Source of the DNA: Candidatus Latescibacterota bacterium
GTDB lineage: Bacteria > Latescibacterota > UBA2968 > GCA-2709665
Reading direction: 5' to 3'
Length of the DNA stretch: 64,000 nt
Assembly (NCBI GenBank): GCA_965116875.1
Contig: OZ220733.1
Location: 3,296,001 to 3,360,000, forward strand
Below, one piece after another: positions 14,673-21,290 of the stretch (positions are counted from its first letter, which is position 1; every line of letters begins with the position of its first letter). The notes beneath the pieces are model-generated. The model saw nothing but the letters and a program-made list of their open reading frames with translations, was not told the origin of the DNA and ran no database searches. The position numbers and the translations under genes are program-made.

Positions 14673-16307
14673 ATGCAGTCCATTGCAAAGTTTCTGAGCG
14701 GCAAGACGCTTTTTGTTACCGGCGCGACGGGATTCCTGGCGAAGGGGTTCGTGGAGAAGGTCCTGTTTTCCGCGCCCGACGTGGCGCGGATCTTTATCCT
14801 GATCCGTCCGCGGTCACGTTCCAACGGCCAGATCGTTTCCGAAACGGAACGCCTGGAATCTGAAATCCTTCAGTCCCGTGCGTTTGAGAGGTTGCGAGGG
14901 AAGTGGGGCGCCGCTTTTCCGTCGGTGATGTCCGAGAAGGTCGCGGCGGTGGCCGGCGATCTGACCGAAGACGGACTGGGGATTTCCACCGAACAACGCG
15001 AGCGACTTGTCGAAGAAGTCGATTTTGTCGTCAATTTCGCCGGGACCGTGGTCTTCGACGAGCCCATCGACAGCGCCCTCGAACAGAATACGATGGGCGC
15101 CGCCCGCGTCGTCGGCTTCGCGAACGCCTGCCGGAAAGCCGCGCTCGTTCATGTATCAACCGCGTACGTGAGCGGAAAGCGCACCGGCCGGATATCCGAA
15201 GCGCCGCTTCCCCAGGACAAGAGCGTTTCGGACCTCATCAACGGAAGCGCCGCCGGGTTCGACCTGCAGGGTGAGATTGACGCCATTCGGGCCTTCACGC
15301 GGGAAGTCGAGGAGGCATCCAGGGAACCCGGCCTCGAGGCGGCGTTCCTGAAGCAGCTCCGGCGGCAGGACCGCGGAAAACGCGTGACCGACTACCGGAA
15401 GGCCCACCAGATGGAAGCCCTTCGCCAGCGCTGGATTCGAAAACAACTTGTAGAAGAAGGCATGCGGCGTGCGAGGCGCCACGGCTGGAACGACAGCTAC
15501 ACCCTCACCAAGGCGATGGGCGAACAGTTGGTCGTGAAACTGCGGGGAGACCTTCCAACGGCCATCGTACGGCCGTCAATCGTAGAGAGCAGCCTCGAGG
15601 ACCCGGAACCCGGCTGGGTGGAGGATCTGAAAGTCGCCGATCCGCTGATCGTCCACTACGGCAAGGGCCGTCTTTCAAATTTCCCGATCGATCCCGGGAT
15701 TGTGCTGGATATCATACCGGTGGACGTCCTGAACAACGCCGTCACCGCGGTTCTTCCGCAGGTGCGCGGGTCCGGGGAGATGAAGGTCTACCACGTGGCC
15801 TCGGGCTCACGGAACCCGGTTCGAGCCAGAGAAATGGTCGAACTGGTTTACGGGTATTTCAAATCTTCGCCCATGCAGGACCGAGCCGGGCGGCCCATCG
15901 ACGTCAGGCCCTGGCAGTTCATCAGCCAGCGGCGGTTCCGTTGTCTGGTCGCACTGAAATACAAGCTTCCTCTGGGTCTGTTGAAGGCGGCTGTGGACTA
16001 TCTGCCCGCCCGATGGGTTTCGCGCTACAGGCGTCGGGTTTCCGGTATGGAAGCCGTGCTGGAGCGGCTCGAGTCCCTGGTCGATACCTATTGCGGATAC
16101 ACCCATCTCGATTGCGAGTTCGAAACGGAGAATACCCGCCGGCTTTTCGAGGCGCTGAACCCCGATGATCAGAAGGAGTTCAACTTCGACGTGACGCGCA
16201 TCAACTGGCGGGAATATATCCAGGAGATCCACATTCCTGGATTGAAACACCATGTGTTGAAAGAGGGAGACGGGGCGGTTTCCACGATGACAGCCGAGGC
16301 CGATTGA
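14673..16307 (+). CDS. Alcohol-forming fatty acyl-CoA reductase (NAD_binding_4 plus Sterile domains)
   Basis: KTLFVTGATGFLAK, HVSTAYV, YTLTKAMGE, IVRPSIVES, EPGWVE, DIIPVD, C-terminal FNFDVTRINWREY..HIPGL. Confidence 0.92.
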   Translation: MQSIAKFLSGKTLFVTGATGFLAKGFVEKVLFSAPDVARIFILIRPRSRSNGQIVSETERLESEILQSRAFERLRGKWGAAFPSVMSEKVAAVAGDLTEDGLGISTEQRERLVEEVDFVVNFAGTVVFDEPIDSALEQNTMGAARVVGFANACRKAALVHVSTAYVSGKRTGRISEAPLPQDKSVSDLINGSAAGFDLQGEIDAIRAFTREVEEASREPGLEAAFLKQLRRQDRGKRVTDYRKAHQMEALRQRWIRKQLVEEGMRRARRHGWNDSYTLTKAMGEQLVVKLRGDLPTAIVRPSIVESSLEDPEPGWVEDLKVADPLIVHYGKGRLSNFPIDPGIVLDIIPVDVLNNAVTAVLPQVRGSGEMKVYHVASGSRNPVRAREMVELVYGYFKSSPMQDRAGRPIDVRPWQFISQRRFRCLVALKYKLPLGLLKAAVDYLPARWVSRYRRRVSGMEAVLERLESLVDTYCGYTHLDCEFETENTRRLFEALNPDDQKEFNFDVTRINWREYIQEIHIPGLKHHVLKEGDGAVSTMTAEAD

Positions 16308-16432
16308 CCGCCATCGGGAGGTTCGAGATTCAGGATCGCCATCGGTCGTACGTTCACGCGATGGGGTTTCGAACGGTGCGAATCCGAATCAGGTATTGAC
16401 GGTCTGTCGGCTTTTTTCAGAAGTGACAACAA

Positions 16433-20394: not shown

Positions 20395-20483
20395 CGTCAT
20401 GGCGCGGACATTGCGATTTGATATCGCCAGGCCATATTTCCAACCGGTTTCATCTGATGGCTGTCTGTAGATCGGGTTTTCCT

Positions 20484-21290
20484 ATGTTCAACGAAAAAGT
20501 CGTTGCGATAACGGGAGCGTCGTCGGGTCTGGGCGCGACGCTGGCGCTGGCGTTCGCCGACGAGGGCGCGGACCTGGCCCTGTTCGCCCTGGACGAGGGT
20601 GTGCAGGACACCGCGGAAGCGTGTCGAGCGCGGGGCAGACGCGCGATTACGGCCACGGGGGACGTGGGAAAACCGGAGGACTGCGAGGCATGGATCAACT
20701 CGGCGGTTGCCGGGTTCGGGGGCGTGGATTATCTGATCGCGTGTGCAGGGATCAGCATGTGGGCGCGGTTTGACGAGGTGGAAGACCTGGCGATTTTTCG
20801 CAAGTTGATGGAAACGAACTACCTGGGCATCGTACATTGCGTCTATTACGCGCTGCCCCATCTGAAGGCGCGCGACGGTATGGTCGTGGCGATCTCTTCC
20901 ATCCAGGGAAAGATCGGCGTTCCCCTGCATACCGGGTACGTAGCGTCCAAGCACGCCGTACAGGGGTTCTTCGAGTCTCTGAGGGCAGAGTTGAGCGACA
21001 CCGGCGTGGACGTGCTGACGGTGCTGCCACACTGGCTGCGGGGCACGAATCTGCGCAAAGCGGCCTTCGGGCGGGATGGCGGTTCTCTTGGCGCGTCCAG
21101 CCGCAAGCACAGCAGGGAGTCCATTTCTCTGGACGACGCCAGCGAAGCCATCATCGAAGCCATGAAGAAGAGGAAGCGGGAACTGATCATTCCGTTCAAG
21201 CTCAGATTTCTGCCCTGGCTGCATCTGATCAACCCGAAGATTGTCGAATACCTGGTAACGCGCGGGGTGTCGAAGCAGGAGAAGGGGTAG
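20484..21290 (+). CDS. Short-chain dehydrogenase/reductase, DHRS7/DHRS7B-like; candidate acyl/alkyl-DHAP reductase
   Basis: ITGASSGLG, METNYLG, AISSIQGK, YVASKHAVQGFFESLRAE. Confidence 0.85.
   Translation: MFNEKVVAITGASSGLGATLALAFADEGADLALFALDEGVQDTAEACRARGRRAITATGDVGKPEDCEAWINSAVAGFGGVDYLIACAGISMWARFDEVEDLAIFRKLMETNYLGIVHCVYYALPHLKARDGMVVAISSIQGKIGVPLHTGYVASKHAVQGFFESLRAELSDTGVDVLTVLPHWLRGTNLRKAAFGRDGGSLGASSRKHSRESISLDDASEAIIEAMKKRKRELIIPFKLRFLPWLHLINPKIVEYLVTRGVSKQEKG

Follow-up and report, generated by a model that had tools for sequence, protein, structure and literature searches.

According to the available text of PMC9131029, ether lipids are made in animal peroxisomes by FAR1 (a fatty acyl-CoA reductase, FAR), the acyltransferase GNPAT, the alkyl-dihydroxyacetone phosphate (alkyl-DHAP) synthase AGPS and the acyl/alkyl-DHAP reductase DHRS7B/PexRAP. 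In bacteria, genes for making ether lipids by way of AGPS are known from Myxococcus alone, in which this pathway contributes little next to that of ElbD and is biochemically uncharacterised; the same text describes the M. xanthus operon MXAN_1676-1675-1674, which encodes AGPS, a fusion of FAR with a GNPAT-like protein, and an NAD-dependent reductase-type protein. Fusions of FAR and GNPAT (FARAT) occur in Myxococcus and many protists, and a GTDB survey of FAR, GNPAT, AGPS and PEDS1 recovered all four enzymes together, PEDS1 included, in 73 genomes, of which 61 belong to Myxococcota, as given in the accessible part of PMC13012113; the string 'Latescibacter' is absent from the main text of that paper. 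Here, a four-gene cluster is described from a Candidatus Latescibacterota bacterium, within a stretch of 64,000 nucleotides (contig OZ220733.1, positions 3,296,001 to 3,360,000; hereafter the window). Four consecutive open reading frames (ORFs) on the + strand encode a FAR (14673-16307, 544 aa), a 646-aa acyltransferase of an orphan family (AT; 16433-18373), AGPS (18427-20313, 628 aa) and a short-chain dehydrogenase/reductase (SDR; 20382-21290, 302 aa).

The cluster is probably an AGPS-route operon for alkyl ether lipids whose AT doubles as the missing sn-1 acyltransferase of the class, acting on DHAP and/or glycerol-3-phosphate (G3P). As far as the accessible M. xanthus account goes, an operon that unites the four kinds of activity in a bacterium is already in print, and the novelty implied by a preliminary description of this locus, made from the DNA letters, which knew of no characterised bacterial operon carrying all four steps, is overstated. 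A June 2026 preprint (bioRxiv 10.64898/2026.06.23.733905) reports, in the portion accessible, that elbD and agps hits co-occur in metagenome-assembled genomes (MAGs) of sponge Latescibacterota and that no earlier work had tied this phylum to ether lipids; the accessible main text reports neither the operon, its acyltransferase nor its SDR.

Identities of the FAR, AGPS and SDR gene products

The first gene product (14673-16307, + strand) matches PF07993 (NAD_binding_4) over residues 15-356 at an E-value of 1.2e-62 and PF03015 ('Sterile') over residues 453-531 at 1.9e-16, and aligns at 1.4e-91 with 7eoz, a fatty acyl-CoA reductase of solved structure. By these two domains it is a FAR of the alcohol-forming, 'male sterility' type, in agreement with the preliminary description, and a four-electron reduction to the alcohol is predicted.

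The third gene product (18427-20313, + strand) is unambiguously predicted to be AGPS (EC 2.5.1.26). It contains PF01565 (FAD_binding_4, 1e-37) and PF02913 (FAD-oxidase_C, 8e-37), and its residues 58-621 match guinea-pig AGPS (4bby) with 498 bits and an E-value of 3.6e-148; Dictyostelium AGPS (2uuu) is matched at 3.1e-83. The best D-lactate dehydrogenase, by comparison, reaches 94 bits (5.1e-26) and glycolate oxidase 6.9e-22, and these scores rule out the D-lactate/glycolate oxidase identity that the preliminary description had named as an outcome that would count against its AGPS assignment. The alignment to solved AGPS retains the S-H-H-H-G-V-G-K loop and the Arg of P-A-S-I-R-L, and also the Tyr of C-I-Y-F, in a column that is Y versus F between entries 4bby and 4bca; the catalytic Tyr, His loop and active-site Arg are taken here to be Y578, H615-617 and R419 in guinea-pig numbering. 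The length of 628 aa is counted from a TTG codon, and the true start possibly lies a few codons downstream. The only AGPS paralogues in the genome are GlcD-like proteins with 27-31% identity, and the 120 best AGPS homologues listed are all bacterial, with at least 63% identity. Homologues at this level are also frequent among MAGs that bear the labels Poribacteria, Marinimicrobia and Gammaproteobacteria, where the JGI name is alkyl-DHAP synthase. The accessible part of PMC13012113 states that AGPS carries too little phylogenetic signal.

The fourth gene product is an SDR, as had been proposed: it has the classical SDR fold (PF00106, 8.2e-44) and matches NCBIfam PRK06181 with 289 bits against a cut-off of 215, and a sequence search of the PDB returned only generic SDRs among solved structures. 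Its frame is open from TTG 20382, and since homologues align only from residue ~34 onward and an ATG is present at 20484, the gene is likely to start at this ATG rather than at the TTG, giving a feature at 20484-21290 (+ strand) for which the role of alkyl/acyl-DHAP reductase is proposed.

Conservation of gene order

A pattern scan with one genome per species identified 126 genomes that encode an AT relative, from which the best 80 loci were kept and assigned to locus classes by tblastn with the four window proteins. Nearly all of these loci are titled Candidatus Latescibacterota, and some are titled Gemmatimonadota. The order FAR-AT-AGPS-SDR on one strand is found in 38 of the 80 loci, so the four-gene arrangement exceeds chance, and in the gene-neighbourhood search that the preliminary description had suggested as a check the set is therefore co-conserved in order. 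Protein identities within complete clusters fall to ~50%. A further four loci show FAR-AT-AGPS followed by the contig end, and one (L037) shows FAR-AT-AGPS with a divergent SDR. FAR-AT alone occurs in eight loci, five with room for more genes (no AGPS within 10 kb) and three at a contig end, and AT stands alone in 26 loci with room for more and in three at a contig end. FAR lies directly upstream of AT in 51 of the 80 loci, and median gaps over the loci are 60 bp for FAR-AT, 78 bp for AT-AGPS and 114 bp for AGPS-SDR. The neighbours of stand-alone AT are unrelated and include an M81 peptidase, NfeD/SPFH proteins and a histidine kinase.

One genome in this set (G008, loci L101 and L104), a 2.0-Mb chromosome titled Gammaproteobacteria, carries the AGPS orthologue split between neighbouring frames, one of 459 aa and one of 197 aa, possibly frameshifted, and retains the FAR-AT pair at another place.

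An orphan acyltransferase with a PlsC/GPAT-type fold

The 646-aa AT has no Pfam match even at E<=10, no NCBIfam match and no PDB sequence match. When phmmer and a profile of 40 AT family sequences were run against the PDB, nothing better than E 0.5 was returned and no solved GPAT was found, and hhalign gives a probability of 0.14 for AT against the genome's own PlsC-like protein. PF01553 is matched at E<=1 by 17 of the 40 family members, with a best value of 8.9e-8, and 25 of the 30 Atlas clusters nearest to AT belong to PF01553, with neighbours named 'lysophospholipid acyltransferase'. The family is narrow: a word-indexed search yielded 90 clusters, mostly named 'hypothetical protein', and an exhaustive phmmer search of 1.84 billion representatives yielded 52 proteins, approximately seven of them full length. 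Frames of ~1040-1100 aa around AT in family f3 were considered as fusions and rejected, being stop-free upstream extensions.

An AlphaFold (AF2) model of the whole protein on the family alignment has a predicted local distance difference test score (pLDDT) of 89 and a predicted template modelling score (pTM) of 0.91. In the VIA comparison, residues 357-642 match Thermotoga maritima PlsC (5kym_B) with a Z-score of 15.5 and a root-mean-square deviation of 3.0 over 222 of 232 residues, followed by human GPAT1 (8e50; Z 9.5) and squash GPAT (1iuq; Z 8.8), and the next unrelated rows reach Z<=8.3; Foldseek likewise matches AT to 5kym (E 4.9e-5, TM(target) 0.63). The sequence carries the motif P-[TAS]-H-Q-x-x-x-[DE]-H, in which H-x4-D/E stands after a beta strand. 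H445 is kept in 40 of 40 sequences, and position 450 holds D in 30 sequences and E in the other 10, the window protein among the latter. R480 is likewise present in all 40, Thr548 is also invariant, and a motif IV-like proline is found in 39. Motif III of the family reads Y-P-[MA]-G-T-T, whereas the canonical motif III of PF01553 acyltransferases is F-P-E-G-T-R.

The N-terminal domain (residues 1-356; 16433-17500, + strand) consists of long helices, has 36 invariant columns among 31 sequences, and is modelled by AF2 with a pLDDT of 82 when folded alone. Its best VIA match is a de novo designed helical barrel at Z 8.2, a range common for helical proteins, and Foldseek found no match at E<=0.001 for the domain folded alone. 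As modelled, it therefore matches no specific known fold, which does not prove a new one. The C-terminal domain (residues 357-646; 17501-18373, + strand) carries the fold and motif described above and is the proposed DHAP/G3P sn-1 acyltransferase. On the models, AT is a divergent acyltransferase of GPAT/PlsC fold with an extra N-terminal domain and is not a recognisable PlsC or GNPAT. The preliminary description had placed it in the PlsC superfamily, a placement upheld by fold and motif and not by sequence matching.

Distribution of AT, AGPS, PlsY and GpsA in the phylum

Gene distribution was determined in a sample of 151 evenly drawn genomes of the phylum, with each gene searched in the same set. 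The class, defined as a 'same class' kinship label or closer, comprises 114 genomes of families f1-f4 and the source genome (115 in total), and the remaining 36 genomes belong to f5-f14. AT is present in 113 of the 115 class genomes and in two of the 36 others, and the two class genomes that lack it are 75% and 78% complete. AGPS (E<=1e-80) is present in 107 class genomes versus one of the others, FAR (E<=1e-80) in 112 versus three, and SDR (E<=1e-55) in 104 (103 of 114 without the source genome) versus none. By contrast, PlsY (PF02660) was found in none of the 115 class genomes and in 29 of the 36 others, and the GpsA C-terminal domain (PF07479) shows the same counts, 0 of 115 and 29 of 36. 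In genomes outside the class that have both genes, gpsA adjoins plsY (e.g. G034:C499:1981-3524); both are missing from the class, as if lost as one unit. One genome outside the class (f8, G030:C112:3-5444) carries FAR-AT-AGPS on a short contig and also has PlsY and GpsA, which means that either the cluster was acquired laterally or the contig was mis-binned.

PlsX was found in none of five genomes tested. PF01553 gives a single match, in an ORF of 222-301 aa, in the source genome, in 13 of the other 14 genomes from its genus and in each of the 20 genus g4 genomes; in the source genome this sole protein is lysophospholipid-acyltransferase-like, and no PlsB-sized PF01553 protein was seen in the source genome, its genus or genus g4. 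Three closed genomes (G001-G003) keep AT and lack AGPS, an SDR orthologue, PlsY and PlsX.

All 104 SDR-positive genomes are AGPS-positive and SDR mostly adjoins AGPS; in family f3 the two genes are usually adjacent although AT lies megabases away. AGPS and SDR behave as one functional unit, in keeping with the role of alkyl-DHAP reductase for SDR, and FAR and AT behave as a second unit beside it. AT itself is older and broader than the cluster and is not an accessory specific to it. The preliminary description had regarded the four genes as a self-contained module, a view that does not hold, given that AT is class-wide, occurs also without AGPS or SDR, and in f3 lies far from AGPS-SDR.

A proposed route to alkyl ether lipids and its alternatives

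The best explanation of the gene content is that the four genes constitute a conserved module which makes 1-O-alkyl-glycerol-3-phosphate, from which alkyl (plasmanyl) ether lipids derive. In the scheme that we infer, together with all its substrates, the DHAP specificity of AT and the co-transcription of the genes, FAR would reduce acyl-CoA to a fatty alcohol, AT would transfer an acyl group onto DHAP, AGPS would exchange this acyl group for the fatty alcohol, SDR would reduce the keto group, and the single PlsC-type enzyme of the genome would acylate the sn-2 position. SDR would bring alkyl-DHAP and acyl-DHAP alike back to the level of G3P. PF10520 (PEDS1/CarF) has no match in the source genome, although the control was silent in every genome, so that absence is not shown; since no PEDS1/CarF was found, the products are probably alkyl ethers rather than plasmalogens. 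This ether-lipid reading, already put forward in the preliminary description, appears well supported by the comparative evidence, namely the gene identities, the co-conservation in order and the occurrence of SDR only with AGPS.

AT is near-universal in a class in which PlsY, GpsA, PlsX where tested, and PlsB-sized PF01553 proteins were not found, and for this reason it is most likely the general sn-1 acyltransferase of the lineage, a putative non-orthologous replacement of PlsX/PlsY. Where AGPS-SDR is present, genomic context makes DHAP its likely acceptor, because no GpsA was found, AGPS depends on acyl-DHAP, and there is no other acyltransferase candidate to supply it. Glycerolipid synthesis in the class would then enter largely or wholly via acyl-DHAP.

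Several observations weigh against this proposal. The nearest solved fold to AT is an sn-2 (lysophosphatidate) acyltransferase and not a DHAP or G3P acyltransferase, and a fold does not reveal the substrate. G001-G003, G006 and G009 carry AT but neither AGPS nor an SDR orthologue, and in genus g20 AT occurs without AGPS in four of five genomes, with an SDR orthologue in none of the five. AT cannot rely on SDR in such SDR-less genomes, and G3P is therefore possibly a real or additional acceptor there; this argues that in G001-G003, g20, G006 and G009 either G3P or another reductase must serve. Glycerol kinase (GlpK) scores above the cut-off in the source genome and in genera g1 and g4, and is patchy in f3, so G3P can exist in the source genome without GpsA. 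One genome of f14 (G025, 96% complete) lacks PlsY, GpsA and AT together, and another solution therefore exists. The complementary pattern of AT versus PlsY and GpsA amounts to one or two evolutionary events, as kin are not independent. A PcrB/GGGPS-family gene (PF01884, 132 bits) is present in the source genome (G000:C1:5064334-5064990) and also in G068, G017 and G131, and may hint at prenyl-glyceryl-phosphate lipids or other lipid routes in genomes without PlsY and GpsA. Intergenic gaps in the window cluster measure 125, 53 and ~170 bp (the last with SDR starting at 20484), and a consensus promoter scan (3 promoter-like sites versus 2.0 expected) and a terminator scan (5 terminator-like sites versus 6.3 expected) are both at background level, which leaves co-transcription unproven. 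The pathway as a whole is proposed here from the presence and absence of genes.

Three other explanations were weighed. AT could be the sn-2 acyltransferase for 1-alkyl-G3P, the AGPAT of the ether branch, with acyl-DHAP coming from another enzyme; the closest solved fold, the lysophosphatidate acyltransferase PlsC at Z 15.5, and the 'lysophospholipid acyltransferase' names of the Atlas neighbours point in this direction. The genome, however, already has a PlsC-type PF01553 protein for that step, no other sn-1/DHAP candidate was found (PlsY in 0 of 115 genomes, PlsX in 0 of 5, no PlsB-sized PF01553 protein), and AT is retained in genomes that lack AGPS, making such a role unlikely. It is likewise improbable that AT is no more than a G3P acyltransferase, analogous to PlsB and simply placed next to FAR, with AGPS drawing acyl-DHAP from elsewhere or using another substrate. 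This explanation accounts for the retention of AT in lineages without AGPS and an SDR orthologue, for its distance from AGPS-SDR in f3 and for the presence of GlpK in the source genome, but the supply of G3P is not assured where GpsA is found in 0 of 115 class genomes and GlpK is patchy in f3, and AGPS requires acyl-DHAP for which there is no other acyltransferase candidate. Moreover, FAR and AT are neighbours in 51 of the 80 loci, an arrangement that parallels the fusions of FAR with GNPAT described for Myxococcus and protists in the accessible part of PMC13012113.

The production of wax esters or other neutral fatty-alcohol lipids by FAR and AT, with AGPS-SDR as an unrelated neighbouring pair, would be in keeping with the five loci that have room for more genes and yet hold a FAR-AT pair with no AGPS within 10 kb, and with G006 and G009, which have no AGPS orthologue at all. 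This is nevertheless very improbable, given that 26 loci hold AT with no FAR next to it, that AT spans the class from which PlsY is missing, that all four genes keep a single order in 38 loci, and that AT has the fold of a glycerolipid acyltransferase; known wax synthases have another fold.

The preferred explanation therefore remains an AGPS-route ether lipid operon with AT as the missing sn-1 acyltransferase. A bolder extension, considered possible but rather doubtful, is that the class abandoned GpsA-PlsX-PlsY, makes its glycerolipids from DHAP, with AT forming acyl-DHAP, AGPS turning much of this into alkyl-DHAP and a dedicated SDR reducing it, and has 1-O-alkyl ether lipids as its principal rather than accessory membrane lipids, in which case these bacteria would be a major, oxygen-independent-of-plasmalogen source of alkyl glycerol ethers in sponges and sediments.

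The AGPS route is near-universal in this uncultured class, which is common in sponges, corals and sediments, and is tied there to an acyltransferase family annotated as 'hypothetical protein'. If AT is the missing sn-1 acyltransferase, it would fill a metabolic gap in genomes that otherwise appear unable to start phospholipid synthesis, provide a bacterial example of an acyl-DHAP pathway, and offer a genetic marker for those alkyl glycerol ether lipids of bacteria on which geochemistry draws. An unannotated and structurally distinct family appears to have displaced the canonical start of phospholipid synthesis across a class, implying that an acyl-DHAP pathway exists in bacteria and, possibly, that ether lipids are the main lipids of the membrane. 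The literature search, which covered titles, abstracts and passages of main text, returned no description of the Latescibacterota operon, the orphan AT or the loss of PlsY and GpsA, and the apparent replacement of PlsY/GpsA by AT seems to be undescribed.

Boundaries and neighbours of the cluster

The cluster is a discrete four-gene unit with oppositely oriented genes on either side, and the ORF layout confirms the preliminary description of four consecutive + strand genes bounded in this way. Upstream of FAR lies a methylase-like gene on the - strand (12935-14227), and the divergent intergenic region between the two (14228-14672) is, from ORF layout and sequence, the presumed promoter region. 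Downstream, real genes were chosen among many overlapping ORFs by G+C content at third codon positions (GC3) and conservation: a dethiobiotin-synthase-like AAA_26 protein is encoded at 21325-22014 and a class-III aminotransferase beyond it at 22083-23579, both on the - strand. These two genes have no relation to lipids; bioD-like and bioA-like, they converge (21325-23579) on the 3' end of the cluster, and a malate synthase G gene lies farther along at 28490-30754 on the + strand.

The genes at 4293-14227 constitute an accessory island that abuts the cluster. Their G+C content is 0.485-0.54 versus 0.60-0.66 in the cluster, their GC3 is 0.46-0.62 versus 0.74-0.79, and they are found again in just 1-5 of the 80 loci. 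Among their products are a DNA-methylase-like protein and an NOV_C-domain protein.

Comparison with known systems

The Latescibacterota cluster resembles the Myxococcus operon, as set out in the accessible text of PMC9131029, in that both bring together AGPS, an acyltransferase, a FAR activity and a reductase of the NAD(P) type. In Myxococcus, FAR and acyltransferase are coupled by fusion, whereas in Latescibacterota they are separate genes coupled by adjacency, with the 60-bp median gap, and the gene order differs. The FAR-AT unit in this respect echoes the FARAT fusions of Myxococcus and protists, as reported in the accessible part of PMC13012113. The Latescibacterota acyltransferase belongs to an orphan family with a 356-aa helical N-terminal domain, whose member in the window matches nothing in Pfam, and the reductase is a classical SDR, unlike the extended epimerase-type reductase of Myxococcus. 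A further difference is that PEDS1/CarF has no match in the Latescibacterota source genome, where the control was also silent. The Myxococcus route is minor beside ElbD, whereas the Latescibacterota route occurs in a class in which PlsY and GpsA were not found.

Relatives of the source genome also show features that resemble the ElbD/elb route of myxobacteria. In G002 (L109:2691-6356), a 1221-aa protein joins the FAR orthologue to an AMP-binding domain and a HAD phosphatase domain; it is preceded by sugar-phosphate isomerase-like genes and followed by a Zn-alcohol dehydrogenase, and similar long frames are present in G001. In sequence, this fusion, carried by the AGPS-less genomes G001-G003, looks like an ElbD/ElbB-like design. 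Other relatives carry FAR in ORFs of ~1400 aa with PF01553. In the window cluster, by contrast, FAR stands alone and the route is that of AGPS.

The animal peroxisomal pathway has the same four chemical steps as those proposed for the Latescibacterota cluster, and the two share a clear AGPS homologue (498 bits, catalytic residues kept) and a FAR with the same two Pfam domains. The Latescibacterota cluster differs in having no organelle, no PEDS1 match (with a silent control) and an AT that is not a detectable relative of GNPAT in a sequence search of solved GPATs. As modelled, AT also has another domain order, its acyltransferase domain being C-terminal, behind the 356-aa helical domain. AT shares with the PlsC/GPAT superfamily (PF01553) the fold of residues 357-642, the H-x4-D/E after a beta strand and the motif IV-like proline, but the window protein has no hidden Markov model match, a deviant motif III and the extra N-terminal domain. 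The role proposed for AT is that of the canonical entry through GpsA and PlsX/PlsY (or PlsB), namely the placing of the first acyl chain onto the glycerol backbone; AT is unrelated to PlsY, and the distributions of the two are complementary in the phylum sample.

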